DNA from: Candidatus Parcubacteria bacterium
GTDB lineage: Bacteria > Patescibacteriota > Minisyncoccia > Phycocordibacterales > UBA918
NCBI GenBank assembly: GCA_046050355.1
Contig: JBJOPW010000001.1
Coordinates: 67,858-131,857, forward strand
Direction of reading: 5' to 3'
Length of the DNA stretch: 64,000 bases
Shown: positions 1,842 through 33,732 of the stretch, piece by piece
Layout: each line of letters starts with the position of its first letter
Position numbering within the stretch: the stretch's first letter is position 1
The notes under the pieces: model-generated
Told to the model about the DNA's origin: nothing
The model's input: the letters and a program-made list of their open reading frames with translations, nothing else
Databases searched by the model: none
Made by a program: the position numbers and the translations under genes

Positions 1842-3098
1842 CTACTTAGCTAATAACTGCTCACGTAAATTCTTGGTGAAATTGACGATGAAGTGGAGGT
1901 TGTGGATGGAGGCGAGGTGTGGGCCGAGTATTTCTCCAGCGCGGAAGAGGTGGGCGACATAGGCCTTCGTATACTTCCCGGCTACATAGCCGGTTGAAAG
2001 TGGATCAAGGAGTGAATGATCGTCTTTATACTGCGCATTACGAAGACTGATCTTTTTGGTCTCGGGGTAGGTGAAGGTACCACAGGGGGTAGTGATCATA
2101 TTACCAGTCATCACATAGATGGTGCCAGTGCGCCCAATACGGGTCGGGGCGACACAGTCAAAGGTATCACAACCCTGGAGCACGCCCTGGACGATGTCTT
2201 CTGGCTCGCCAATACCGAGGAGATGGCGGGGTTTATCGATTGGGAGGATTTCGTTGACGACCCGGAGCGAATCACCAAGATCGTTTTTACTAAAGCTCCC
2301 ACCAATACCAAAACCATCAAAGTCCATATCGCTGAGGATACGCGCACTTTCTTGGCGCAAGTCCATAAAGCGTCCACCTTGCACTACACCGTAGAGACCT
2401 TGTTTCTTGAGCGCTTCGTAGTTTTGCTTGTGGGCCATGATACTGCGCTTCGCCCAACGATGAGTACGATCAGACGCTTCCTTTTGGTACTCGTAGTCCG
2501 CGGTGGGACTGGTACACTCATCAAAGGCGATGATAATATCAGCGCCAATGGCGTGCTGGATATCGATACTGCGTTCGGCGGTGAAGCGATGCATCGAACC
2601 GTCGAGATGTGACGTGAAGGTTACTCCTTCTTCATCGATGATACAGAGCTTGCCGTGGTCTTCAGCGAACTTTTGACTATAGACATTAAGACCCTTCTTG
2701 ACTGGGAGTTCGGTTTCGTTTTCGTCTACTTCCCCTTTGGCGAACTTCGTCACCCCTTTGCCAAAAGCGGCGCCAAGACTAAAGACCTGAAACCCGCCGG
2801 AGTCGGTCATCGTCGGTGTCGGCCACTTGGCAAATTCATTGAGGCCACCACCAGCTTTGATTACCTCATGTCCAGGCTGGAGAAAGAGGTGGTAGGTGTT
2901 CGCGAGCGTTACTTCGTTACCGACGTACTGCGTGAGATCTTCGGGCATGAGACTCTTCACACTGGCTTTGGTTCCGACCACTACAAAGGCTGGTGTATGA
3001 ATATCACCATGCGGCGTATGAATAATGCCAGCGCGGGCGAGATTGCCCTTACCTACTGCCTCGGTCTCAAACCAGACCGGTCTCGTGTTGTCAGCCAT
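1842..3098 (-). CDS. tgt: Queuine tRNA-ribosyltransferase (tRNA-guanine transglycosylase)
   Basis: ORF 1842..3191. The likely true start is the internal Met of MADNTRPVWFETEA at 3098. Motifs: GGLNEFAKWPTPTMTDSGGFQVFSLG (the TDSGG substrate-binding region) and GCDTFDCVAPTRIGRTG (the FDCV.PTR motif). The C-terminal Zn-site cysteines appear substituted (see findings). It overlaps the RAYT stop convergently by 8 nt. Confidence 0.85.
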   Translation of the reverse strand: MADNTRPVWFETEAVGKGNLARAGIIHTPHGDIHTPAFVVVGTKASVKSLMPEDLTQYVGNEVTLANTYHLFLQPGHEVIKAGGGLNEFAKWPTPTMTDSGGFQVFSLGAAFGKGVTKFAKGEVDENETELPVKKGLNVYSQKFAEDHGKLCIIDEEGVTFTSHLDGSMHRFTAERSIDIQHAIGADIIIAFDECTSPTADYEYQKEASDRTHRWAKRSIMAHKQNYEALKKQGLYGVVQGGRFMDLRQESARILSDMDFDGFGIGGSFSKNDLGDSLRVVNEILPIDKPRHLLGIGEPEDIVQGVLQGCDTFDCVAPTRIGRTGTIYVMTGNMITTPCGTFTYPETKKISLRNAQYKDDHSLLDPLSTGYVAGKYTKAYVAHLFRAGEILGPHLASIHNLHFIVNFTKNLREQLLAK

Positions 3099-3303
3099 AA
3101 TTGGTCTACTATAGCGGGAGAATCTCACTGTGGCAAACACACAAGTGACTACAAATCTGTATACGTAAAGTTGGCTCAAGCTCAAGCGCAATCAAAATGT
3201 CACCAGACGAGGAACACGAACGATGAAGTGCGAGGTGTATTAAATATACATTGGTTGCTTTCGAGTGAAGTGCAACAAAGTCTGGGGGTATTTTGGACGT
3301 GCA

Positions 3304-10173: not shown

Positions 10174-13100
10174 TTAGTAAACAGGAACGGCTATATAGAC
10201 AATTTCGGTGGTATAACTAGCGGCTGGTTGCATCCCAGTCACCTTTACTCTATATACAATATCATGGCTGTCATTGGCTGGTAATGGACTATACATAACT
10301 TCAGCCACATCAGTATGGAGACCAGCATAACTATCAAGCGGAGCAAATCGCGTAGAACCACCCGTGAGCGTTGCATCTGTTGTATGGTAGCCGACACAAC
10401 CAGATGCGGTAGTGATACAACCAACCGCCCAAGCAGCCGGCACAGCATTAGTTCCGGTGACGGACGGGATTGGTGTCCCATAGCCATTTTGTAACTGCTG
10501 GCGCGCAAAAGACAGCACTCGGTAGCCATCAGTAGCATTAGTGGTGACCGCCAACCGGTGAGCTGCCACCGCATCAGTGTCAATTGGTATTGAACCGAAG
10601 GTTACCGTTGCCGGGGTAGTGGCTACCGTCGTAACTACACCAGCAGTCGTCGTACCACTTGGAAGTCCACTAATACTCAGTGTCAATTTTGGTGTCTCTG
10701 CAACAAGACTTGGGTATGATTCCCCGCTTGCTGGCGCAACCGGTGCGTCTTCAAAGACTTCGTAGAGTCTGAAGTAGTACACTGCCCCCGCCCGAGCAGC
10801 TGCATGACGGAGGTAAAAGGCAAATTCAGTCGACGCACCGGCTAGATGGGTGTACCCAGTCGTATAGGTTGGCGACTCGTTGTGTGTACCACAACCACTG
10901 CCTGTACCACCCGTACAGCTGTTAGCATCAGTCAGCACTTTAGTGGTAATAGTGGCATTATCAGTACCACCACCGTCGACATAACACCACGTTGAGGTGG
11001 CCGTACAAGCTGCTTGCGTCACGACATCTTTTGGCGACGTAAATGTTGGCGACTCGTCGTATTGGAGTTTAAATTTTATGTCTTGGCCCACCACATTTTT
11101 TCGTTGACCAACCGTAACGCGTAAAGTAAATTCATTTCCATTTTGTACCTCAATTGGTGAAATAATTTCACCAGAAAGTGGACTAAGGGGGGTTTCGCTT
11201 TCAGCATCATCATAAAAGCGCCAACGTTTTGTTTGTGGTGAATAGCCGGCTGTGCGGATTTGCGGGTAGTTAAAATAACCGTCTAATGGTGTACCGTCAC
11301 TCCGTACCATACGGAAACAGTAGGTATTACGTGAGATTGCACCATTGTGTTGAATAAACCAATCGTATTCTACGTCTTCACCCGGATCAACAATATAAGG
11401 GTTAGCTGGTGCCGGATTTTCTTCAACTAAACTACCAGCTCGATCAGCTACCGAAATTAACAAATCGCCTCCGGTTGGCGGGTTGGTACTTAAATTTGTA
11501 CCGTTTGTTGTCCCTGTGGCAGCGTACCCTCGCCAGATACCACTACCAGCCGCAGTGTCAAGATCACTCCAGGTACCAACGGTCGAACAGGAAGTAGCAC
11601 GCAATCCATACTGCAACTTAAAATCATACAGACCAGCCGGTAGGTTTGCGTTGGCTACCCGTAACGTCATGCGTAGTCGCACCAGGTCACCATCTCCGAG
11701 TGGTTCGTCGGCAATTGTAATGGGGTTGTTTTCACCCAAATCTGAGACACCAACCGGCCATGGGTCGGTGGGCTTCAGGGCATTATTATTAACATAGAAC
11801 CGATAGTAATTTTGACGAACAGCGAGTCCAGAAACTGGCCATTCCACAATTTCGGTACGATACGTCATTTCCCCTGAGGCTTCACTGCGCCACAGTTCAT
11901 AGGTGGACGTGCTCGTAATACGAGCACCGGCCATTGGTAAGGGAAAGGTCGTATTAGCCCCCACGACGCGGGTATTAGCAAATATTGATGCATTGTTTGT
12001 CGCTTCAATTGGTGAGAAGATTGAGATTGATAACGCTACTGGCTCAGTACCGGCGTTGGTCGTTCCATTTGTTCGTTGTACCTCCATAGCACCGGCACTG
12101 GTCTGCAGGTTTTCAATAATCCAAGCCACTGAAGTATGTCCGCTCGGTGCAGTAGCAGCGCCCTCAAGTCGGTATGATACGGCGCCAATACTCGACAGCC
12201 AAACTTCGTGGCCAAAGTTGTTGACGTTGCCTTGAGCGGTCATGCGTTTTTGTGTGTGTATAAACGAACGCGCTAAACTATTGAGCGTTGTTGGTATTGA
12301 TTCTGTTTCTACGGTTCCAACTGCAGTATACGTATGTTCACTTCGTTGCACCTGCCAATTAATGCCGGTAAATTCAACCACGGCATAGCTCACATTGATA
12401 ATAGCCCCACCGGCTCCACGATTAAAAACGGGTGCCGTACTGGTGGGACTCCAACTTGATGTTACTTGCCCGGCATAATACACGTTACGCGCAACATCAC
12501 GGTTCTCAATACCAGTTATAAAGACCACCACATCAGTATTATCGGTAATGGTACCAAGGGCAGTGCCGGTGGCTATCAAGGCGGCACTCGCCATATTGAC
12601 ACTCCCCACCCCTCTTACCTTCATTTCATTGTCGGTGCCAGCATCCCCAATAAACTCAACGATTTCCCAGTTCACCCGTGTATTTCCGGTGGCAGCTGGT
12701 GGCCGAGAAATGGTAAAATTGCTCGGTAAGTTAGCCGCCGAAATGTACGCGGTGATATCATCGGCATTTTGCGCTCCTCCACCAGCTGTCGTGCGTCCCG
12801 GCCCAGTGTTGTGGGTGTCAGTGAGACGGACAAAGGCAGTCGTTGTGCTCGCTGGAGCAGTATAGTCAACACCAGCGGTTAGCGTTTGTGACGTACCGGC
12901 GATGGTAGCAGTGCCACGCTGCACTTTAAAATCACGCTTGGGAGCAGTGGTTAGTTCTGCATAGTTACTATAGGTTAAGGGTTCTCCATTATTGGTGAGT
13001 CTAAAGCAATACGTAGTATTATAAGCAGTAATATTGGTAGAGGTAATACTAAATTCATACTCAGCAAATTCAGTTGTACTCATGACCAGAGCAGAGGTAG

Positions 13101-16100
13101 TACTCGTGGTATCACGTTGGCCGGCATTTGCGACAATAAAGGTTGGATTTGGGTCGGTAACACCCCCGTTTGCAACCGCAATATTGGTAGTGTTGTTACC
13201 GTTGGTGAGATTAGTGCTATCAAACATATTCCAGTCATCAGCACTATCGCCAACCGGTGTCCACACACTCACCGCACTACAGGTAGTCACGCGCGGTCCA
13301 AATTCAAGGCGATAGGCGGTTGCAACAGAAGCAGCCGCACCTTCGTTTGAAAGTGCCAGGCGTAGTCGGATTGGTGTATTGGCAGGGTGTTCTGTCAGGA
13401 GGACATTTTCTGACCCACCTGTAGCTGAAGTTGCTGTAGTTTCAGACCCATTGTCGTTACGCCAATGGTAACCATTTTGGGTAATCACTGGTCCTGAAAG
13501 CGTGGTGGTACCGTTAATTGCTATCGGTGTAGATGGTGATACCGATCCAGCCGAGACACCGATATCATTAGCGGGTGAAGAAATTTCTATTTGCACGGTG
13601 TCACCATTGCTAGCCGCAGCGGTAACATCAAACACCACATAAAGACAAACGGTCTGTGTGGTTGTTACGGTCACCGAGCCACTAAACGTTGATGTACCAT
13701 TTTGACTAGTAAAGCCATCAGTATCGGTGCTACCAAATTGCGTTTCTGATCCACCATACGATTCACTGGCACAATCGTACGGAGCGGTGGTGTCTAAATC
13801 ATATCTAAGCACTATGGTATCTAAGTGATTCTGTGCATCAACAGTGCCATTCTCAGCTATCATAATATTGGTAATATTTCGACTACTGGTGTTTTCACGA
13901 AAGACAAACTGGCCGCCGACATGTTGATTTGTAGATGGCACCAAGAGCGATGCTGTCTGACTACCTAAAGCGGTCACACTGACATCAGCGGCAATGGTGA
14001 CACTTGGGAATTGTGAATATACGGGTAAGGGGGTGCCAGCATTAGTAACACGAAAACAGTACGTTGTTCCCTCACTCGCTGAGGTTGATGCAACAATGGC
14101 ATATTCTAATTCAACAAAATTAGTGTTCGTTAGCGTTAAAGAGCCAGTTTGTGAAGAGACTTCGCGCAAGCCACCATTGGGGGTTAAAAATGTCGTGTTT
14201 TCGTCGGCCACACCACCAGTACCCACTGCAATATTAGTAGTATCTCCCCCTTCGGTAATATTTGCAGATAACGACATATTCCAGGCATCATCGGCTGCCC
14301 CGACATCAGTCCAACTCGTGGTGTCATTACAGGTCGGGGCTGCTACCCCATACTCCAAACGAAATGTTGATGCGGCGCTAGATAGTGAGCCTTCGTTTGA
14401 TACCTGCACGCGCAGGCGACGAGGGTTATTCGGCAACAGTGCAGCGATTGGTGTATCAGCTACTCCGCCGGTCGCAGATGAGGCGGTAGTTTCTGTACCG
14501 TTATCGTTACGCCAGTGGTAGTGCGTTTGGGTAAGTTCATCATTTTGAATCAGTGATGATGAAGCCATACGCACTGGAGATTCAGGCATTACCAGCACAC
14601 CACCAGTGACAATCACGTCATCATTAGGAGCTTCAACTGAAACTGACAACGTATCACCATCAAGGGCAGCTTCTAGTACATCGAGCACGACGTAGAAGCA
14701 CATGGCCTGTGTCGTGGTGATAGACTGTAAGCCAGAAAAACTCGAAACCCCATTAGCGCCAGAAAATCCATTAGTGTCTGTAAGTCCATACTGAGATTCA
14801 GTGCCACTATATGATTCACTGACACAGTCATAGGGGGCCGAAGTATCAAGGTCATAAAACAATTTCACATTGCTCACCGCAGTACTACCATTAATACTGC
14901 CACGCTCGTTAACGACTACAGCGGTCACATTCCGACTACTTTGGGTTTCTCGAATTGCAAACTTGCCGCCGACATAGACATTATTGGTACCGGCGGTGAT
15001 AACACTGGTCGCTGTACCGGTTGCATACAATTTTGTAATCGGTGCGATATCAGCAAGCGTATCACCAAAATAATCATCTGGTGCTGGGTCAGTCCAACTC
15101 ACATAGATGCGCTCATCACTCATGAGATTGATATCAAGACCACGATGGTCGCCAGCAGTCACACCCGAGACGGTTCGCTCAGGACTCCAGGTTGACATAG
15201 CAGAAGTTGAAGTCGCCCAGTAGATACCTCCGGTCGTGGCTGTCGCCGGTGTCGACCGTAGTACATAGGCAACATAAACAGTACTGGTATTGATATCTAA
15301 TCCAATCGCAACCGTATTAAGACCACGTGTTGTATTCGTAAATACTGCAGTTGTTCCAGTCCATGAACCGGATGAGAACTTAGCCGTACGAACATCATGA
15401 TCAAGTGTAGTATACGTGTCATGATCAGCACCATAGGCAAGATACACATCACCGGAGTTTGGGTCAACAACAGCCGCCATACTGGTATCGTACGTAGCAC
15501 TCTCAACGGCTGCCCCATCAATAGTAGTCCAACTGGCTGACCAAGCTGATCCATTCCATACACGTGACTGAATCACGTTTAAACTAATGTCACGGTTTAT
15601 AAGGAGTACATTGCCATTAATAAGTGGCAACAATATATTCCAATCATTATCAAGATCCATAAAACGCGCACCACCCGGCTCACTCCAGCCAGTAGTGGCG
15701 GTGCACCCCGTGTCAGTATCGCAACTCACCACAAAAGAATCAGCGGCATCTGAGATACCGATAAAAACTTCGTTACCAGCATTTTTTGTGACCGTGAGGT
15801 TGTTAGTACCCGATACGTAGGTGCCGGCCTGACTTGAGTTGGTACTCGCGTTCACTGGAGCAGTACCGAGGAGGAGAGTGTCGGTACTGGTATCAAGCGC
15901 ATTATAAAATACATGGTCGGGGTTTGAGGCCGTTTCCATTGTTGCTATATGAATCGTGCTCCCAAAGTCGCCGGGTGTCCACTGGTCATACCACACCGCA
16001 ATACTCGAACAGTCAGTTTGGGCATCTACAATCACTGGTGTATTCCAGACCGTACCACCGTTTGTAGTCTTACTATACACACAACTACCAGAGAGATCTC

Positions 16101-16335
16101 GGTAAAACTTGTACCCCACCTGATCAGAAGTGAACACCGTTTGGGAGCCACCGAAGAAAAATGAGTTGGCATCGGTACTCACCGTAGCATCAATGGTATT
16201 TTGGGCAGCTTCGGCCATAGTCGGCCAGGCCATATACTCCAAAAACGTGAAGTTGAGAAAAAACATCACAGCTAACATGATGCCAGCAATCAGTCGACGC
16301 CATCCATACCAAAAAAACGCTGGAAACCTCCGCAT
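10174..16335 (-). CDS. Giant (2053 aa) Thr/Ser-rich cell-surface protein, N-terminal TM anchor, repeated beta-sandwich modules
   Basis: Uninterrupted 6.2 kb ORF. N-terminal TM (LIAGIMLAVMFFLNF). At least 4 copies of a ~150-aa module opening with (H/Y)WRNDNG(S/T)ETTA(S/T)SATGG or YYRFYVNNN and closing with TYCFR(V/L/M)TN.G.PL. W.G..W propeller-like repeats near the N-terminus. Confidence 0.8.
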   Translation of the reverse strand: MRRFPAFFWYGWRRLIAGIMLAVMFFLNFTFLEYMAWPTMAEAAQNTIDATVSTDANSFFFGGSQTVFTSDQVGYKFYRDLSGSCVYSKTTNGGTVWNTPVIVDAQTDCSSIAVWYDQWTPGDFGSTIHIATMETASNPDHVFYNALDTSTDTLLLGTAPVNASTNSSQAGTYVSGTNNLTVTKNAGNEVFIGISDAADSFVVSCDTDTGCTATTGWSEPGGARFMDLDNDWNILLPLINGNVLLINRDISLNVIQSRVWNGSAWSASWTTIDGAAVESATYDTSMAAVVDPNSGDVYLAYGADHDTYTTLDHDVRTAKFSSGSWTGTTAVFTNTTRGLNTVAIGLDINTSTVYVAYVLRSTPATATTGGIYWATSTSAMSTWSPERTVSGVTAGDHRGLDINLMSDERIYVSWTDPAPDDYFGDTLADIAPITKLYATGTATSVITAGTNNVYVGGKFAIRETQSSRNVTAVVVNERGSINGSTAVSNVKLFYDLDTSAPYDCVSESYSGTESQYGLTDTNGFSGANGVSSFSGLQSITTTQAMCFYVVLDVLEAALDGDTLSVSVEAPNDDVIVTGGVLVMPESPVRMASSSLIQNDELTQTHYHWRNDNGTETTASSATGGVADTPIAALLPNNPRRLRVQVSNEGSLSSAASTFRLEYGVAAPTCNDTTSWTDVGAADDAWNMSLSANITEGGDTTNIAVGTGGVADENTTFLTPNGGLREVSSQTGSLTLTNTNFVELEYAIVASTSASEGTTYCFRVTNAGTPLPVYSQFPSVTIAADVSVTALGSQTASLLVPSTNQHVGGQFVFRENTSSRNITNIMIAENGTVDAQNHLDTIVLRYDLDTTAPYDCASESYGGSETQFGSTDTDGFTSQNGTSTFSGSVTVTTTQTVCLYVVFDVTAAASNGDTVQIEISSPANDIGVSAGSVSPSTPIAINGTTTLSGPVITQNGYHWRNDNGSETTATSATGGSENVLLTEHPANTPIRLRLALSNEGAAASVATAYRLEFGPRVTTCSAVSVWTPVGDSADDWNMFDSTNLTNGNNTTNIAVANGGVTDPNPTFIVANAGQRDTTSTTSALVMSTTEFAEYEFSITSTNITAYNTTYCFRLTNNGEPLTYSNYAELTTAPKRDFKVQRGTATIAGTSQTLTAGVDYTAPASTTTAFVRLTDTHNTGPGRTTAGGGAQNADDITAYISAANLPSNFTISRPPAATGNTRVNWEIVEFIGDAGTDNEMKVRGVGSVNMASAALIATGTALGTITDNTDVVVFITGIENRDVARNVYYAGQVTSSWSPTSTAPVFNRGAGGAIINVSYAVVEFTGINWQVQRSEHTYTAVGTVETESIPTTLNSLARSFIHTQKRMTAQGNVNNFGHEVWLSSIGAVSYRLEGAATAPSGHTSVAWIIENLQTSAGAMEVQRTNGTTNAGTEPVALSISIFSPIEATNNASIFANTRVVGANTTFPLPMAGARITSTSTYELWRSEASGEMTYRTEIVEWPVSGLAVRQNYYRFYVNNNALKPTDPWPVGVSDLGENNPITIADEPLGDGDLVRLRMTLRVANANLPAGLYDFKLQYGLRATSCSTVGTWSDLDTAAGSGIWRGYAATGTTNGTNLSTNPPTGGDLLISVADRAGSLVEENPAPANPYIVDPGEDVEYDWFIQHNGAISRNTYCFRMVRSDGTPLDGYFNYPQIRTAGYSPQTKRWRFYDDAESETPLSPLSGEIISPIEVQNGNEFTLRVTVGQRKNVVGQDIKFKLQYDESPTFTSPKDVVTQAACTATSTWCYVDGGGTDNATITTKVLTDANSCTGGTGSGCGTHNESPTYTTGYTHLAGASTEFAFYLRHAAARAGAVYYFRLYEVFEDAPVAPASGESYPSLVAETPKLTLSISGLPSGTTTAGVVTTVATTPATVTFGSIPIDTDAVAAHRLAVTTNATDGYRVLSFARQQLQNGYGTPIPSVTGTNAVPAAWAVGCITTASGCVGYHTTDATLTGGSTRFAPLDSYAGLHTDVAEVMYSPLPANDSHDIVYRVKVTGMQPAASYTTEIVYIAVPVY

Positions 16336-25682: not shown

Positions 25683-26729
25683 CTACGTTAAACGAGAACG
25701 ACGGTTATGAATAAAGAATAAGATGACAATAAGTACTGCGAAGATTGGCAGCAGGATCGATAGCTTGTGTGCTATTGATAGTCCCATAAAGCCGTAACCA
25801 GCGACCTGTAGCGTGCCATATGGCAATATACTCAAGTTGAGTTCACCCTCTTGTTTGACATCCTCGCCATTTTTAATGGTATACCGCGCGATATAGCTAC
25901 CAGCCGGTAACCGGGTCGGGAGTGAGGCACTAATTTCTTCTATCGCGTAGGGAGCGATTTTTTTGAGACGACCCGTATGGTGGGTTTCCTCGAGTAATAC
26001 GGCGCCAGCGCGATCATAAATACGAAACTCAACATCTGACGGAGCAACATCAATGTTACCGGTGTTCTCAATCAACATCGAAAAATTAATCTTGCCAGGG
26101 AAATACAACCAACCAACTTTCTTTCCTTCATTGAGATCACTGACAGTAATCTTACGGACGCGGAAATCTTCGATGACTTTATCAATGACTGATAGATCGA
26201 CATCAACTTGAGCACCCAGAGAAATGCTTACGACACCCTCAGCGACCTGATCATCAGCTGGCAGCGTACGGATACGAATCTTGCCGGTATAGTCTGCAAA
26301 ATCTGCCTCAGCTGGAACCTTGATACGTACTGTCATGGGCACTTTTTGTTGTCCACGTGGCAAGGCGATACTTTGACCTTCAACAATCTCTATCCAATCC
26401 TGAATCTCTGGTGCGTCAATTGTAATTTCGGCTTTGAGATTGTCACTTGGGTTACCACGAACCAGGAGAATCTGCTGTTCGTAGGTTGAGTTGCGTGTCA
26501 GGCTGGTGTTCCGAACATACGGCGGGGTAATACCAAAACTAGCGTAACTTAAGGCTGGCCAAAAAGCCAAAGTTGCGAGCACACACAAAACAAAAGAACG
26601 AAGCAAAAACGTTGGCAAAATTACCTTCATGCGATACTCACTATTATCGAAAATATTAGCCAAAAAAGCAATAACCACTGTTCGGATAACAGTGGTTATT
26701 GCTTGTTGTATAGAGTGATGGTTTACCAA
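25683..26729 (-). CDS. Hypothetical surface protein with a signal peptide and a C-terminal TM anchor
   Basis: N-terminal hydrophobic segment, a beta-rich ectodomain, C-terminal TM LSILLPIFAVLIVILFFI followed by HNRRSRLT. Confidence 0.5.
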   Translation of the reverse strand: MVNHHSIQQAITTVIRTVVIAFLANIFDNSEYRMKVILPTFLLRSFVLCVLATLAFWPALSYASFGITPPYVRNTSLTRNSTYEQQILLVRGNPSDNLKAEITIDAPEIQDWIEIVEGQSIALPRGQQKVPMTVRIKVPAEADFADYTGKIRIRTLPADDQVAEGVVSISLGAQVDVDLSVIDKVIEDFRVRKITVSDLNEGKKVGWLYFPGKINFSMLIENTGNIDVAPSDVEFRIYDRAGAVLLEETHHTGRLKKIAPYAIEEISASLPTRLPAGSYIARYTIKNGEDVKQEGELNLSILPYGTLQVAGYGFMGLSIAHKLSILLPIFAVLIVILFFIHNRRSRLT

Positions 26730-28600
26730 CTTAATGGATTTGAGATTGCACCAGTGAAAGTGTTTTGTCCGGTGTATGATCCAGCGAGGGTGATCGTACC
26801 TGGTACCGCAATACCCCAGTAGGTTGTACCTGATGTTGGTGTCGAGGTCGCAGTTGGTTTTGGAATCTGAATCTGTAACGTTGCCGGTGACGTAGTTGGT
26901 TGAAGCGCTGCACCAGAGGCATAGGCAACCGCAGAAGTAGCATACCGCTGCTCACCTTGTGGAATTGTCGACGTGGCAGAAACTGGGCAAGGGTTAGTGG
27001 TACTAAAGGTCGTACACATAGACTCACCACCAAGGAGTTGATTAAGACCAGTGTTACCAAGGACTCGTAGTGATGACGATGAAGTCAAGTTTGGCATGTT
27101 TGTCCCCGGCTCAAGCTGATCGTACGCAATGGTACTCGTCAGGAGATCAATGGCCACGAGACTCAAGAGTTCTACCGGACTGGTGGTAGTCGCCATGGTA
27201 CCAGTGGCATTATCATCATCGACACCAGCTACACCAGCACTCCAAGCCTGCGTATCAAATGGTGTTCCAGAAACAGTTGGATCAGCAATGAACCAGAGTG
27301 GGAAGGAACATGAGTAACTGATCGTATCGTCAGTGTTGCCGGTACACGATGTTGTGGAAGCTGTACATGAAAGGTTCCAAACTGAAGCAGCTACTCCACT
27401 TGGATAACAGTTGTTTGCATTGTAAGCTCCAGCTGATCCATCACAAGTTGTTGTTCCAACCGCACTACGGAAGATAGAGACCACCGAACGCTGGATTTCA
27501 TCAGCCGCACCGCCACCAACCGCATCACAACTGTTAGCATCAGCCACCACAAAATCAAGCGTAAAACCTGTTGTTTGTGAACCCGGCACTGTAAGCACTA
27601 TATCAAGTCCACCATTAAGAGAAATGGTACCACCGGCCACTGTTGGTGCGACGTTGCTGACTTCAAAGGTAACGTTTGTACCTTGTGCACCACCTGATGC
27701 TTCGTGACCGTGCTCATCATAAAGATACGCAAATGCGTTGTAGTTAGTGTCCTGAAGAATAGTAGCCATTACTCGCGAGGTGGTGGCGTTAGCAAACGCA
27801 ATCGAGAGTGATGATGAAGCAACAGTATCACCGGCGCCACAACTGTTCGTACTGGTACTATATGAAGCCGAACCACAAACTACCAGGTAAAGTGCGTCAT
27901 CAGTATCTACAACGTCTGGGTCAGTAGAGGTTGATCTAAAGAGTAGTGTACCGCCTGGATTAACTGGACCATCATTACTAAACCCAGTGAAAACTGGTCG
28001 ACGATTCACATTAAATGGTGACGAGTTCGTCGCATTTGTACCCTGTGAGAAAGTGGTACTACAACGGGGGTTTACCGGATCATCGTCACACACCCAGGCG
28101 TACCAGTCGTTTGATTCAGCAAAGGGCGCAACTTCTACGGTCGTGGTGGCAGCACGGGCTTCAGTGCCACTTGGCGTGCCCGTAGAAACCGCCCAGCGTG
28201 TACCAGCACTACAGACAGGAGCCGCAGTACCTAAGGTGGTTGTCGACTGTTGAGCAGTTGGGGTGGCGTTTGTACTACACACAATGAGGAAGTATGGTGC
28301 ACCGTTGGCATCGCTTGCTGTTCCGACCCAAGCTACTTGATCACCTGAGTTCGTTGGCGAGGTTGAAGATGAGCTGATTAACTCACGACCCTCTTGTCCA
28401 GCCACCCAGGTTGGCGGCGTGTTAAGTACGGTCAACGTGGTCGTTGCAGTACTGGTCGCTTCGGCCTTTTCAAGCTCAGTTTTACCAATGTTAAGAATAA
28501 AGATGAAGGTAAAAATGAGCAACCCTGATAATGCTGATAATACGGTGATTTTCCCAGCGGTCTCTACATACCGTGGAAAGTTATTTTTGTTGTACAACAT
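26723..28600 (-). CDS. Thr/Ser-rich secreted or anchored surface protein (625 aa)
   Basis: N-terminal TM (ITVLSALSGLLIFTFIFIL). Extended T/S-rich low-complexity beta-rich sequence with many Cys pairs. 7-nt overlap with the downstream gene. Confidence 0.55.
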   Translation of the reverse strand: MLYNKNNFPRYVETAGKITVLSALSGLLIFTFIFILNIGKTELEKAEATSTATTTLTVLNTPPTWVAGQEGRELISSSSTSPTNSGDQVAWVGTASDANGAPYFLIVCSTNATPTAQQSTTTLGTAAPVCSAGTRWAVSTGTPSGTEARAATTTVEVAPFAESNDWYAWVCDDDPVNPRCSTTFSQGTNATNSSPFNVNRRPVFTGFSNDGPVNPGGTLLFRSTSTDPDVVDTDDALYLVVCGSASYSTSTNSCGAGDTVASSSLSIAFANATTSRVMATILQDTNYNAFAYLYDEHGHEASGGAQGTNVTFEVSNVAPTVAGGTISLNGGLDIVLTVPGSQTTGFTLDFVVADANSCDAVGGGAADEIQRSVVSIFRSAVGTTTCDGSAGAYNANNCYPSGVAASVWNLSCTASTTSCTGNTDDTISYSCSFPLWFIADPTVSGTPFDTQAWSAGVAGVDDDNATGTMATTTSPVELLSLVAIDLLTSTIAYDQLEPGTNMPNLTSSSSLRVLGNTGLNQLLGGESMCTTFSTTNPCPVSATSTIPQGEQRYATSAVAYASGAALQPTTSPATLQIQIPKPTATSTPTSGTTYWGIAVPGTITLAGSYTGQNTFTGAISNPLSW

Positions 28601-28703
28601 ACTAAATACCTATATATTGTATCGGATAAAGGCCTGAGTTATGCACTAGTTATGCACAGTAAGCAACCTCTGTGACAGCTGGTGAGTTTTAGTCACTGCG
28701 ATA

Positions 28704-28737
28704 ATTTTTAAAAAAGACGAGGTCGGACCTCGTCCTT
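28704..28737 (-). terminator. Intrinsic terminator on the minus strand, using a REP-like palindrome (GACGAGGTC-G-GACCTCGTC) followed by TTTTTT
   Basis: Perfect 9-bp palindrome at 28716..28734. On the minus strand it is immediately followed by a U6 run (plus-strand AAAAAA at 28710..28715). It lies 3' (in the minus sense) of the FtsX gene and the repeat or ncRNA region. Confidence 0.45.
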
Positions 28738-28790
28738 AGGGGCACCAAGAAACTAAAGTTCCTCAAATAAAGTGAGCGTCTGGTGGCCAA

Positions 28791-28940
28791 GAGACGTGGA
28801 CTGGGCCATTAGGGATAGTGAGAAATGGGGTGGGACCCATTTCTCAAGACTCATTGTGGATATTTGTGAGTGATAACGAAACAAATAGCCCAATGAGTGG
28901 ACAGCCTCTGTAAGAAGTCAGCTCACGGAAATTCGTCAGG
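28791..28940. ncRNA. Candidate structured RNA, tandem unit 1
   Basis: ~150-nt unit repeated at 28970..29120 (~80% identity). Three helices: 28820..28828/28837..28845, 28849..28856/28891..28898 and 28862..28867/28881..28886. Each is preserved in unit 2 by compensatory substitutions. Strand undetermined. Confidence 0.35.
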
Positions 28941-28969
28941 TAAGCATAAAGAGAGTGTGCGGTAGCTGT

Positions 28970-29120
28970 GAGACGTGGACTGGGCCATTAGGTGAGAAAA
29001 CGTGGGACGTTTTCGCAAGACTCATTGCGTAATTTTATGAGTGGTAACGAAATAAAATTGCCAATGAGTAGACAGTTTCTGTAAGAAATAGGCCCAGCTC
29101 ACGGAAATTCGCAATAGTCG
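28970..29120. ncRNA. Candidate structured RNA, tandem unit 2
   Basis: Helices 28994..29002/29008..29016 (GAGAAAACG/CGTTTTCGC), 29020..29027/29062..29069 (ACTCATTG/CAATGAGT) and 29031..29037/29053..29059 (AATTTTA/TAAAATT). These covary with unit 1. A further partial copy of the 3' motif TTCGCAATAGTCGG lies at 29190..29205. Confidence 0.35.
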
Positions 29121-29231
29121 GCGAAGAAGATTCAAGAAACATAGTGATTCGGCCTAGAAAAGACATTAGGAATAGTCTTCTCTAGGTAAGTTCGCAATAG
29201 TCGGCTTGCGCTTCGTTTGCTCACTTAATTT

Positions 29232-30461
29232 CTATTCATAGCGAATCGCATCCAGTGGATTTAGAGACGAAGCCCGACGGGCTGGGAAGATTCCAGTCAA
29301 GTACCCCACCGCCGCTGAGAAGAGAGCAATAAATACGAGGAAGCCAATCGGGAAAGAAAAGAGCTTCACTGCCTGCCCGCCAAATTGCCCCGCCACAATA
29401 TTCAAAAAGACATTGATGGTCACCCCTAAACCTACCCCCATCACGATGCCACTAATACCGCCAAGGAAGCCTACTACCACCGACTCTGACACGAAGAGGT
29501 ACTTCACATCATTTGGTGAGGCCCCAATCGTACGCATAATACCGATCTCTTTGGTACGCTCAAGGAGGGTCACCGTCATGGTATTGAACATACCAATGGC
29601 TGACACTACTAGCGCAATACCACCGAAGGTAGCAAGTACGATCTGAATTCCTTGAAAGATTTTGGAAGCTTGCTCCACGGTCTTTGAGAGTGCTGTCACC
29701 CGGTAGCCAGCGTCGATAAGTTTATTTTCTACAATCGGTAAATTCTCGTTGGTATCAACGCGTACTTGAATCCGTTCAAATTCTTCAATACCGACATAGT
29801 TGCGTAGTTCAGGCAACATCATCATCGCATTAAGGACACCTTCCTCTTTGGTAATGCCACGAACAGTGTATTCCTTATCAATAATGACTTCAGTGTTGTT
29901 GTTAGTCCCATCATTAGCCGGAATCAAAATACGAAATGATACTTTTTCACCAACAAAGGTGGCTGGATCATCAACTCCAAACAGCTTTAGTACGGCTGGC
30001 GAAAGCATCACAGAATTCGTATCACCAGCGTCAGCATCGGTAAAGACAGTGCCTTCAGTGGCCGATACGCCGGCATACCGCAGATAAGGTGGCTCCACAC
30101 CTTGAATAAAGACGTTCCCGGTGAGACCTTTGTAGGTGACGAGAGCCGGAAAGCGAGCGAGCGGAGCGGCGTCGAGTACCTCAGGCATATTTTCAAAATC
30201 AGCCACGGTCTCGGTGGTCAATTTTAGGTTTTGCGCACCAGTAGCTGAGACACCGAGCGACAAAAGGGTCTCACCAAACACGATCTGTTCTAGAATGATT
30301 TGCTGCAAACCAAACCCAAGACCAACGAGAATCACCACGGCCCCTGTCCCCACACCCATACCCAAAATCGTGAGCCACGTACGAAGCGGGTTGGTTTTGA
30401 ACATACGCGTCGAAAGCTGCGCCAGATCCTGAACTCGCATAGTACTTACATTATGACACAA
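29232..30461 (-). CDS. ABC transporter permease, MacB/FtsX family (N-terminal TM, large periplasmic domain, C-terminal FtsX 3-TM bundle)
   Basis: 409 aa. TM1 LRTWLTILGMGVGTGAVVILVGLGFGL, a ~230-aa periplasmic core, then a C-terminal FtsX-like region (IALVVSAIGMFNTMTVTLLERTKEIGIMRTIGASPNDV...). Confidence 0.8.
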   Translation of the reverse strand: MCHNVSTMRVQDLAQLSTRMFKTNPLRTWLTILGMGVGTGAVVILVGLGFGLQQIILEQIVFGETLLSLGVSATGAQNLKLTTETVADFENMPEVLDAAPLARFPALVTYKGLTGNVFIQGVEPPYLRYAGVSATEGTVFTDADAGDTNSVMLSPAVLKLFGVDDPATFVGEKVSFRILIPANDGTNNNTEVIIDKEYTVRGITKEEGVLNAMMMLPELRNYVGIEEFERIQVRVDTNENLPIVENKLIDAGYRVTALSKTVEQASKIFQGIQIVLATFGGIALVVSAIGMFNTMTVTLLERTKEIGIMRTIGASPNDVKYLFVSESVVVGFLGGISGIVMGVGLGVTINVFLNIVAGQFGGQAVKLFSFPIGFLVFIALFSAAVGYLTGIFPARRASSLNPLDAIRYE

Positions 30462-31900: not shown

Positions 31901-32256
31901 ACGTAGCTACATTATGACACAGCATAACAATTGAAGACGTCTCTCATATCCCCATTACCAAATCAAAACAAATAAGATGTGTGATTTGTTTCAGCATGAG
32001 TCTGCTAGGATTTACAAACTTGATGCAGTTCGAGGCGGACGAGTAAAATTTTGTGAGGCGTATTAAATATACGTTTAATAAAATTTTATGAAGTCCAACA
32101 AAGAAATGCGCTAGTTTGGAGATTCTAGTTGGTAATGTTCTTAACCCAACCAAAAAGTAAAACAACAACCGTGAGGTTGTATGATTTTACTTTGTTCCAA
32201 CTTTCTATTCCTAATGAAAGTTCTGGAACCTTTTGGTGGATTAAGATATAACTAAT

Positions 32257-33732
32257 TTAATTAGTTATATTCTTAACCCAACCAAAAGTAGACTCAAAGT
32301 TCTCAAGAATCAAATCAATAATATTCTTCTCTTGAATCGGTGTAAAGAGCACGAAGTTTTCAGACTGTATGGTATTTTCAGCTTCATCAGTACAGTTAAG
32401 CCAGAATTGGTAGACAGTCGCCGGCGCAAAATCAGTAATAACCTCAACGTGGTTGGTATTATATTCAAGTACTTCTTTTTCGAGCACAATCGGTTCAACT
32501 CCACCCGCCACTCCTTCACGATAGGTCATAATACATGAAGCCGGTTCATCAGTATTCCATTCAACGATTGTCTGTACCCGTGATTCTCCCCCCGGGAAAA
32601 TAGTAGATTCATTGGTCACATTTGAGATCAGCGGAGCCGAATTATCGCGTACCGTAATAAATTGAATCGGTTGACTACGAACGCGGTCTCCGCCAGAGTT
32701 TTCGGCAATCACAAACGCGACATAGCGAGTACCCAGAGTAAGATCAGAGAGACGCATCTGGTGTGTAGTGGCTAAAGTTGGTCGCCCTACAGAATTCTGG
32801 GTACCAAGGGTGAGATCTTGGTATTCAATGAGCGCTTTCGCCGGCACGGTTGTATCCCACGCTAGGGTGGCAGCATTTTCTTCTACCTTGACGATGCGTA
32901 AGTTACGAATGTCGGGTAACGAGGCTTTGGTTTTAAACGTGTACGTTCTACTTTCACCAGTAATTTGGTACGAATCGGTGGAACGAACTTGAAAACTGTA
33001 CTCAGTAAATGGCTCAAGACCAATGAGCTTAATCTCGTGGTCAGTGACCGCACCAGCGGTTGACGATTGTGAGAAATCAAAATTGGTACCATCAAAGCCG
33101 TTAGTTCGGGCAAAACGAACTTCTGAATTGGCTTCACGATCAGTCACCCAGGACACAGTTGCTGAAGTAGTTTCTGGTACTACCGTTGGTGGACCAACAA
33201 TGGTCAAATCTTCAGTAATACCCTGAATCGCTTTGACAGTTTCGTTAAGAATTTCCTGGAGCTGTTGTGGGCTTTGGATTTGCTGAATTTGTTCAACAAT
33301 CTCTTGCGGTGTATTAGTTTGTCCGGGTCCAACCCCACTACCTGAGCCACTGTCTGAAGATTTCTCGCTATCGACATCTATTTTGTAGTCAGCGGAGATA
33401 CCTTGGTTACCATCAGCATCAGCGGAAATCACTCGAAAATAGTACGTACGACCAGGGTCGAGGTTTTCGAGGGTCACCGAATGACTGGTACGATTTGCTA
33501 CTGGCACACGGACAACTCCCAGATCTGGATTGAGACTGTAATTTACTGCCGAATCCGCGCTTTCATTCGTCTTCCAAGTAATCGTTACCGTTGTTTCGGT
33601 GGATGAAGCAACTTTTACTTCGGTGATTTCTGGTGCTTTTGTATCACTGGTTTGCGCTATAAGCGGGTTACTCGGTAACGCAAAAACACCGAGGAAGAGG
33701 AGGAGTAGCGGAAATAAACGCAACATAATCAT
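32257..33732 (-). CDS. Secreted protein with tandem fibronectin type III-like domains
   Basis: Signal peptide. Repeated FN3-like units (TETTVTITWKTNESADSAVNYSL...DPGRTYYFRVISADADGNQG; SATVSWVTDREANSEVRFART; ENAATLAWDTTVPAKALIEYQ; TIVEWNTDEPASCIMTYRE). Confidence 0.7.
   Translation of the reverse strand: MIMLRLFPLLLLFLGVFALPSNPLIAQTSDTKAPEITEVKVASSTETTVTITWKTNESADSAVNYSLNPDLGVVRVPVANRTSHSVTLENLDPGRTYYFRVISADADGNQGISADYKIDVDSEKSSDSGSGSGVGPGQTNTPQEIVEQIQQIQSPQQLQEILNETVKAIQGITEDLTIVGPPTVVPETTSATVSWVTDREANSEVRFARTNGFDGTNFDFSQSSTAGAVTDHEIKLIGLEPFTEYSFQVRSTDSYQITGESRTYTFKTKASLPDIRNLRIVKVEENAATLAWDTTVPAKALIEYQDLTLGTQNSVGRPTLATTHQMRLSDLTLGTRYVAFVIAENSGGDRVRSQPIQFITVRDNSAPLISNVTNESTIFPGGESRVQTIVEWNTDEPASCIMTYREGVAGGVEPIVLEKEVLEYNTNHVEVITDFAPATVYQFWLNCTDEAENTIQSENFVLFTPIQEKNIIDLILENFESTFGWVKNITN

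Follow-up and report, generated by a model that had tools for sequence, protein, structure and literature searches.

Organization of the array

The stretch analyzed here (the window, 64,000 nt) comes from Candidatus Parcubacteria bacterium, a member of the Parcubacteria/Paceibacteria of the candidate phyla radiation (CPR), and contains a 631-bp non-coding spacer that houses an array of structured repeats on its plus strand. The spacer lies between two minus-strand genes, encoding a conserved hypothetical protein of 625 aa and a 409-aa FtsX/MacB-type permease (Table 1). A reading made from the letters alone (hereafter the sequence-only reading) had described two units in this spacer as a tandemly duplicated 150-nt pair of noncoding RNA (ncRNA) genes. 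The two related units were confirmed (28786-28940 and 28965-29116, with 84% column identity in a MAFFT alignment) and, as had been proposed, no plausible open reading frame (ORF) covers the region, the longest within the spacer being at most 46 aa. The gene pair was not upheld: both units combine a member of an outer hairpin family, module A, with an inner three-helix element, module B, which is missing from the orthologous hairpin of a close relative and sits at different positions in the two units. The proposed period of 179 nt holds for the 5' parts; the remainder is spaced by 171-176 nt because of small indels. The spacer is identical (632/632) in an independent assembly (L001), which rules out an assembly artefact.

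The two modules were named after a covariance model of the two units had been run over 65 syntenic loci from other Paceibacteria, where it gave separable matches: 58-nt matches to the outer hairpin alone in L002, L008, and L058, and matches to the inner three helices alone in L004, L006, L007, L009, L018, and L044. The array in the window comprises three tandem copies of module A adjoining the 3' end of the FtsX gene, with module B inside the loops of two of them at insertion points 5 nt apart. The third, empty outer hairpin (29141-29213) and a lone hairpin on the minus strand further along the window had been missed by the sequence-only reading.

Fold and covariation of module B

In the window, module B is 94-97 nt long and forms an open three-way junction on the plus strand. 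The three helices named by the sequence-only reading all lie within the minimum free energy (MFE) folds of both units; its helix 1 corresponds to P2 and its helices 2 and 3 to the lower and upper parts of P3. It had overlooked P4, NNNCU-GUA-AGN'N'N', as well as the outer helix CGTGGACTGGGCC / GGCCCAGCTCACG. The consensus starts with 5'-UGAG, which opens P2 at the first base of the element by pairing with CGCA. The P2 loop is GGG or CGAAUACUUGGAG and is followed by a two-base junction, AG, and a long P3, which AC/GU closes and which carries a GAG...CGAAA motif towards its apex. P3 occurs in two subfamilies, CUCAUUG... or CCUUUUG.... The 3' part consists of the junction GKACAG and P4, NNNCU-GUA-AGN'.

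Further copies, which the sequence-only reading had proposed to look for, were found on at least 120 metagenome contigs with a pattern that left the helices free but fixed the junction motifs CAAGAC, GTGNACAG, and CTGTAAG. A covariance model of B alone (R2) recovered 110 copies at E ≤ 0.01. Standard pairs occupy 94.7% of the pair cells in their alignment, compared with 66.2% after shuffling and 37-48% in slid controls. All 27 of the 27 pairs show double changes (20.7 in shuffles, 12-21 in slid controls), and the covariation score is 0.66 (0.17 and 0.05-0.13, respectively). Between the two window units themselves, seven base pairs are altered on both sides with pairing kept, in agreement with the compensatory changes described earlier. 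Thus, as had been claimed, the helices of B are kept by selection on structure and are not those of a decaying repeat. In the syntenic set, which is free of the bias of the pattern, the junction motifs are conserved but not invariant.

The apex of P4, CUGUAAG, is the sequence of the tRNA-Tyr anticodon loop. We considered P4 as a mimic of that loop and rejected it, as rare variants of its C-G and U-A pairs stay paired; a GUA triloop is the more likely apex. Queuine tRNA-ribosyltransferase (TGT) recognizes UGU in anticodon loops, and a gene for this enzyme lies at 1842-3191 (minus strand) of the window, a link that is probably coincidence.

Module B as an insertion in hairpin loops

Module B apparently is, or recently was, mobile. 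A relative with 89% identity in the 625-aa protein (L002) has a single, empty A hairpin in the same spacer. When 28993-29086 is removed from window unit 2, the remainder aligns with this hairpin without gaps (63/69) across the join of ATTAGG and AATAGG, with neither duplication nor deletion. Empty hairpins are also present in L157, L008, and L058. A second clean case is found in L099, where one copy of a tRNA-Ile T-arm is empty (CCCTGG/TTCGAG) and the next copy holds B at that exact point. The region concerned (L099:5150-5520, minus strand) consists of an intact tRNA-Ile(UAU) gene and, after it, two partial copies of the 3' half, both of which begin in the anticodon loop and look like remnants of site-specific integration events; it is the second partial copy that carries B in its T-loop.

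The positions of B vary between close relatives at syntenic loci. Within the window, B1 sits 5 nt further 3' in the A loop than B2; the two are 79% identical, each is 80-84% identical to copies on unrelated contigs, which are its nearest relatives, and the flanking A stems are identical. The differing insertion points, the 79% identity, and the identical stems make independent entry likelier than duplication of a composite, and a simple tandem duplication of the composite unit is disfavored on these grounds.

Other copies lie in truncated tRNA genes beside an intact gene of the same identity. There, B is found between T-stem and T-loop (L099, L127, L109, L116, L094, L004, L144, L142), after the D-stem (L137, L091, L159, L115), in the variable loop (L119), or after the anticodon (L142). 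A tRNA gene lies within 150 nt of 25 of 121 copies, a 5-fold enrichment given that ∼4% of the sequence is that close. Excising B restored a detectable tRNA in 0/121 cases, so that a role of B as an intron of functional tRNAs was rejected for this sample. ARAGORN detected no tRNA or transfer-messenger RNA gene in the window and never called B itself.

Module B also enters module B. In L008 and L157/L197, the apical P3 loop of one copy houses a second, and in L002 and L209, the P2 loop of a B copy contains a diverged subtype. This B-like subtype (GUAAAG.../UGAGG..., GUUGCCAGC...GCGACAAC, CUGUACU-GGUCAU-GUA-A) was observed at L002:1340-1440, L209:2244-2335, and L008:557-656, each on the minus strand. 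In other copies, the two flanks of B tend to fold together better than mismatched flanks (-13.6 versus -11.6 kcal/mol, p = 2e-5), which indicates that B usually lies within the loop of some hairpin. Some flanks recur: one subfamily has the hairpin GCAAGCAAACUGCUUUGCUUGC ∼7 nt upstream of B (L135:1265-1340, L120:(-)540-512, L110, L130, L090), and in L136 (twice) and L080, B stands between ...UUGCGAG and AUGRAGC...GAAUGACGURGCAAUC. These recurrent flank families imply that further mosaic modules exist.

Host bases complete P4

Where filled and empty sites can be compared cleanly, the 3' end of the element is ...CUGUAAGA, and the outer two to three pairs of P4 use host bases. The guide bases of the element differ with the host: GUU faces AAU of the A loop in window unit 2, GUC faces GAU of an A-loop variant in L157, GAA faces UUC of the T-loop in at least seven independent tRNA contexts, and GGUC of the nested diverged subtype faces GACC in the P2 of its host. 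On the 5' side, the base directly before B is almost always G in the 110 covariance-model copies; the second base before it is G or A in 96/121 copies, and nothing is conserved further upstream. Judging from these target classes, B looks to choose its target by short base pairing beside its terminal hairpin.

Module A

Module A is an intergenic unit of ∼110 nt, composed of a leader, a 13-bp covarying hairpin with the loop AUUAGGAAUA, and a 3' tail (AAAUUCGCAAUAGUCGCUACGCUCG...). The hairpin is 36 nt long, and its stem keeps a G.U/A.C tandem at positions 5-6. Its loop and the variants of it are conserved, always with AGGA/AGGG, as is the tail of 25-45 nt (AAAUUCGCAAUAGUCGCUACGCUCGUUUGCUCAC). 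In the syntenic loci, a model of A (R3) found >30 copies, which occur on either strand with respect to genes; stem pairing reaches 88.7% (53.3% in shuffles) with a covariation score of 0.386 (0.093). In the window, compared with copies 1 and 2, copy 3 has a stem in which all changes are compensated, and its tail recurs in many relatives; an exact 23-mer of copy 1, GAGACGTGGACTGGGCCATTAGG, occurs twice in the window and not at all in shuffles.

Contigs that encode an identical 625-aa protein (P0002) differ by an indel of ∼122 nt that is exactly one A unit, present in L203 and L206 and absent from L200, L201, L202, and L207. Thus, A is gained or lost on short time scales. The possibility that the tail or loop serves as a promoter was dropped, the hexamers, as read from sequence, fitting poorly. 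In a comparison with CsrB/Rsm-type sponges, the A loops carry AGGA, and only three to four copies are seen in the window. The lone A-type hairpin is flanked by two copies of TTCTTAACCCAACCAAAA (32139-32157 and 32271-32289), and a near-perfect 17-bp palindrome at 32243-32277, TTAAGATATAACTAATT/AATTAGTTATAT(T)CTTAA, overlaps the stop of a 491-aa gene.

Table 1. Coordinates of the array modules and adjoining features in the window
Feature	Position	Strand	Details	Basis
Conserved hypothetical gene	26723-28600	-	625 aa; flanks spacer	
Non-coding spacer	28601-29231		631 bp	
Terminator-like hairpin	28704-28737	-	with U-run; downstream (- sense) of whole array	
A copy 1, 5' part	28765-28818	+	leader; 5' stem strand CGTGGACTG (28795-28803); loop ATTAGGGATAG	direct repeat D2
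B1	28819-28915	+	97 nt, UGAG...GUAAGA, inserted after GGGATAG; P2 28819-28846; P3 28849-28898; P4 28904-28918, last 3 nt host; 92.6 bits, E = 4e-21; fold -40.3 kcal/mol, z = -6.4	R2 covariance-model match
A copy 1, 3' part	28916-28940	+	degenerate 3' stem strand CAGCTCACG (28919-28927); start of tail GGAAATTCG	repeat D4; outer helix in MFE fold
A copy 2, 5' part	28944-28992	+	leader; 5' strand CGTGGACTGGGCC (28974-28986); 5' half-loop ATTAGG	orthologous to empty hairpin L002:2756-2830
B2	28993-29086	+	94 nt, precisely between ATTAGG and AATAGG; P2 28993-29017; P3 29020-29069; P4 29075-29089, last 3 nt host loop; 96.4 bits; fold z = -5.6	R2 match; excision comparison
A copy 2, 3' part	29087-29125	+	3' half-loop AATAG; 3' strand GGCCCAGCTCACG (29091-29103); tail GGAAATTCGCAATAGTCGGC	
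A copy 3, no insert	29141-29230	+	hairpin 29152-29187, GCCTAGAAAAGAC-ATTAGGAATA-GTCTTCTCTAGGT; tail AAGTTCGCAATAGTCGGCTTGCGCTTCGTTTGCTCAC	R3 match, 68.1 bits; hairpin scan; folds
FtsX/MacB-type permease gene	29232-30461	-	409 aa; flanks spacer	
Lone A-type hairpin	32199-32222	-	loop ATTAGGAATAG; no conserved tail; orientation opposite to array	exact 11-mer loop match; hairpin scan; weak R3 match

Strand, transcription, and gene context

On the plus strand, the folding energies of the units are -53.5 and -53.3 kcal/mol (z = -5.1 and -7.2), compared with -45.7 and -43.0 kcal/mol (z = -5.4 and -6.2) on the minus strand. The B alignment holds 60 G.U pairs and 34 A.C cells, and 19 of the 25 copies near tRNA genes are on the tRNA strand. 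On the basis of the stabler plus-strand folds, the G.U excess, and the co-orientation with tRNAs, the folding strand of B appears to be the plus strand of the window. Relative to neighboring ORFs, the orientation of B is random (27/30 upstream, 31/25 downstream), and a cis-regulatory leader or riboswitch was rejected on this ground.

All sizeable genes around the array are on the minus strand. The hairpin with a T-run that the sequence-only reading had proposed as a minus-strand terminator is indeed terminator-like; it follows the array, and L002 and L203 likewise have a terminator hairpin at this position. Most simply, it ends the upstream ATP-binding cassette (ABC)/FtsX operon. With the genes on the minus strand and the terminator past the array, the only evident transcript is that of this operon, which reads the antisense of B. 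The plus strand of the array has no evident promoter or terminator; a plus-strand match to a consensus promoter (28591-28618) overlaps the start of the 625-aa gene and does not indicate function. Upstream of that gene, a perfect direct repeat, AGTTATGCAC, occurs twice with 11-nt spacing (28637-28657) and is conserved in L002, L203, and L209. It may be an operator-like site.

Distribution and searches for relatives

Both repeat families are specific to Paceibacteria/Parcubacteria of the CPR. The wider set of B comprises 121 copies on 114 contigs, with at most three per contig and lengths of 76-134 nt among the matches listed. The junction-motif pattern that located the metagenome contigs gave no match in 2.9 million viral contigs (IMG/VR). 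A viral origin was set aside, since the two patterns tried on IMG/VR gave chance matches or none, and the module-A pattern likewise none.

Rfam 15 returned no family for the whole window at the gathering threshold. For the region at E ≤ 10, it returned chance matches only (17-18 bits), for ten B-bearing loci tRNAs only, and for L002 nothing, and we discarded a known RNA family on the strength of these scans. Literature searches found no description of A or B elements. Module B is widespread in CPR bacteria, not in Rfam, and apparently mobile.

No protein partner is evident near B. When 799 neighboring ORFs were clustered all-against-all, only housekeeping families such as EF-G recurred; no protein family recurred within 3 kb of B, and no TnpA was present near 80 loci. 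These results led us to abandon the idea of a protein partner encoded nearby. Some 24 window proteins compared with Pfam include no transposase, integrase, or reverse transcriptase. An autonomous parent carrying an ORF in P3 was likewise rejected: in ∼1.3 Mb, no half-elements split by a long insert were found, only nested B.

Comparison with known systems

By analogy, module A is similar in location and dynamics to the extragenic hairpins of the repetitive extragenic palindrome (REP) type; its conserved parts are different ones. REPs and the bacterial interspersed mosaic elements (BIMEs) built from them, which occur in Enterobacteria and Pseudomonas and are mobilized by REP-associated tyrosine transposases (RAYTs), are like A short, imperfect palindromes at gene 3' ends that cluster in multi-module mosaics in both orientations and are present or absent between strains. 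The 36-nt A hairpin occurs in arrays of two to three, mixed with B, next to gene ends. However, A conserves its loop and its 25-45-nt tail while the stem varies, the reverse of REPs, and B is a three-way junction and not a palindrome. A carries no GTAG head, and no RAYT/Y1 transposase was present among the window proteins scanned.

Module B is short, non-coding, multi-copy, and polymorphic in position, as expected of small non-autonomous repeats. Miniature inverted-repeat transposable elements do not fit: the B ends (UGAG... and ...GUAAGA) are not complementary, leaving no terminal inverted repeats, and the gapless comparisons at the A loop and the L099 T-arm show no target-site duplication. 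The IS200/IS605 elements and their non-autonomous derivatives, the palindrome-associated transposable elements (PATEs), have single-stranded substrates, structured ends, and strand specificity, lack target duplications and terminal inverted repeats, and read cleavage and target sites by base pairing of an internal guide beside a hairpin. B likewise has P2 at its 5' end, P4 at its 3' end, and no duplication. In contrast to these elements, B pairs with its 3' flank and not with a fixed 5'-flank tetranucleotide. No fixed tetra- or pentanucleotide was found 5' of B, where there is only R-G. In addition, the entire element is structured with conserved junctions, and no TnpA or TnpB gene is nearby.

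Group I and II introns share with B precise insertion in structured RNA genes, guide-exon pairing, nesting, and a predicted fold that looks catalytic, and the phylum is itself intron-rich (PMC13011429). However, the 94-nt B has neither a P3-P9 nor a domain V core, no Rfam match, no functional host gene (0/121), and a random orientation with respect to transcription. Against group I stand in particular the length (94-97 nt compared with >∼200 nt), the lack of a match to RF00028, and the 0/121 tRNAs restored. Together with the preceding host base G, the 5' end of B gives a GUGAG junction similar to the GUGYG of group II, but neither domain V nor VI is present, nor is there an Rfam match. We also observed a tRNA-Asp-like gene, missed by ARAGORN, that is interrupted right after its anticodon GUC (L091:9740-9840, plus strand); this interruption matches the group I introns at tRNA position 35/36 reported for Patescibacteria (PMC13011429). 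Hammerhead, twister, twister-sister, pistol, hatchet, hepatitis delta virus-like, and hairpin ribozymes gave no Rfam match at E ≤ 10.

Archaeal bulge-helix-bulge tRNA introns are small inserts in the D-arm, variable loop, and T-loop and are thought to transpose between tRNAs. B differs in its bacterial host, the absence of an evident bulge-helix-bulge motif, and the truncated, non-functional state of the interrupted tRNA copies. Rickettsia palindromic elements and similar repeats are structured, selfish, ∼100 nt long, and insert into genes, RNA genes included, of very small genomes; the Rickettsia elements are simple long hairpins, for which neither guide-target pairing nor a three-way junction is described. 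Integron attC sites serve as substrates in folded, single-stranded form and therefore keep their structure as their sequence diverges, but they are single imperfect hairpins with R''/R' GTTRRRY cores beside gene cassettes, none of which occur in the three-way junction of B. By analogy, B would fall within the small non-autonomous structured mobile elements and would work most like a guide-using, duplication-free, strand-specific inserter.

Interpretation

We favor, with a probability of roughly 55%, the explanation that the array is a mosaic of two repeat families in which B is a small, structure-dependent mobile element directed to hairpin loops by guide pairing and served by an enzyme encoded in trans. 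B would enter an exposed hairpin loop directly after an R-G dinucleotide, leaving no target-site duplication. The two to three guide bases just 5' of the CU-GUA-AG hairpin would pair with host bases 3' of the insertion, thereby completing P4, and the host stem would become a fourth helix (P1) of the inserted element. In the window, copies from two B lineages would have invaded two separate A hairpins, at insertion points that differ by 5 nt, and left the third empty. We infer that mobility depends on the folded single strand and the trans-encoded enzyme, and by analogy with IS200/IS605 and attC, we lean towards a reaction at the level of single-stranded DNA.

Several points weigh against this explanation. 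No enzyme, autonomous parent element, or excision product has been seen, and the filled/empty evidence is limited to two target classes. A complex covarying fold with conserved junction bases, across contigs of 30-59% G+C, suggests long-term selection, and selfish DNA repeats seldom show such compensatory conservation; the conservation of the three junction motifs is overstated in the sample, as the search pattern fixes them. The G.U excess (60 versus 34) and the sense orientation in tRNA fragments would fit RNA equally.

The last point leads to the alternative that B is an intron-like or self-processing mobile RNA, a small ribozyme with its guide paired to the 3' flank, which we regard as possible but doubtful. 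The guide would act as in group I P10 or as in the exon- and intron-binding sites (EBS3/IBS3) of group II, B would be removed from, or reverse-spliced into, the hairpin loops of transcripts, and A would be functional after excision. The complex covarying fold with its conserved junctions, GA-rich motif near the P3 apex, and triloops would suit a ribozyme, as would precise insertion without duplication, guide pairing with host nucleotides, twintron-like nesting, and G.U in excess of A.C. In tRNA fragments, moreover, B is in sense orientation at loops that are single-stranded in RNA (T-loop, D-arm, variable loop), and self-splicing group I introns are unusually abundant in Patescibacteria (PMC13011429). 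However, the hosts are dead tRNA fragments or intergenic hairpins, with no tRNA restored by any of the 121 excisions, the orientation is random with respect to neighboring transcription units, and the only evident transcript in the window runs antisense to B. A length of 94 nt is far under that of known self-splicing introns, no Rfam intron or ribozyme matches, and group II introns are reported to be absent from Patescibacteria (PMC13011429). In its most specific form, this alternative would make B a new CPR-specific class of selfish, ∼95-nt mobile catalytic RNA, a mini-intron or self-inserting ribozyme that would find hairpin loops, tRNA T-loops among them, with a 2-3-bp guide, would insert or excise without protein-coding capacity of its own, and could nest in itself.

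A pair of paralogous genes, each for a stable, structured ncRNA that acts in trans and has the outer hairpin as its own closing helix, is an unlikely reading of the units. In its favor, the covariation is strong, the closing helix in most copies is of free sequence, and the copies in tRNA clusters lie on the tRNA strand, so that they could be transcribed and processed together with the tRNAs. Against it, empty outer hairpins with a conserved loop and tail of their own occur both in relatives and in the window. B also interrupts other B copies, its positions vary among close relatives, B1 and B2 occupy different A-loop sites, and the plus strand lacks an evident promoter or terminator.

Still less probable is that the array acts in cis as a REP/BIME-like minus-strand structure in the 3' untranslated region of the ABC/FtsX operon, stabilizing the mRNA or shaping its 3' end, with the A and B shapes mattering only as stable hairpins. 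The array does lie between the FtsX stop codon and a position-conserved minus-strand terminator, the minus-strand folds are stable (z = -5.4 and -6.2), and the empty A copy folds better on this strand (z = -5.0 versus -2.4), but both modules occur in either orientation relative to neighboring genes, a mere stabilizer needs no conserved loops, junctions, and tail, and close relatives lack the elements at this locus. Such a role would be compatible with mobility of B as a secondary effect.

Other features of the window

Two giant ORFs, of 7456 aa (33751-56121) and 2053 aa (10174-16335), are both on the minus strand. Genes near them carry cohesin, dockerin, Big, and fibronectin-type domains, and the region has the appearance of a locus for giant cell-surface proteins, as is typical of CPR.

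Significance

A widespread, unannotated, and nested family of structured elements is unexpected in the tiny, streamlined genomes of the CPR/Patescibacteria. These elements confound the annotation of tRNA fragments and of intergenic "small RNAs" in these genomes, and a covariance model is now available for masking or study. The family is a candidate for a new mobility mechanism in which a short internal guide targets a loop and the host completes a helix of the element. Should B move or process itself at the RNA level, no smaller intron-like element would be known; movement as single-stranded DNA would extend guide-based target choice beyond IS200/IS605.

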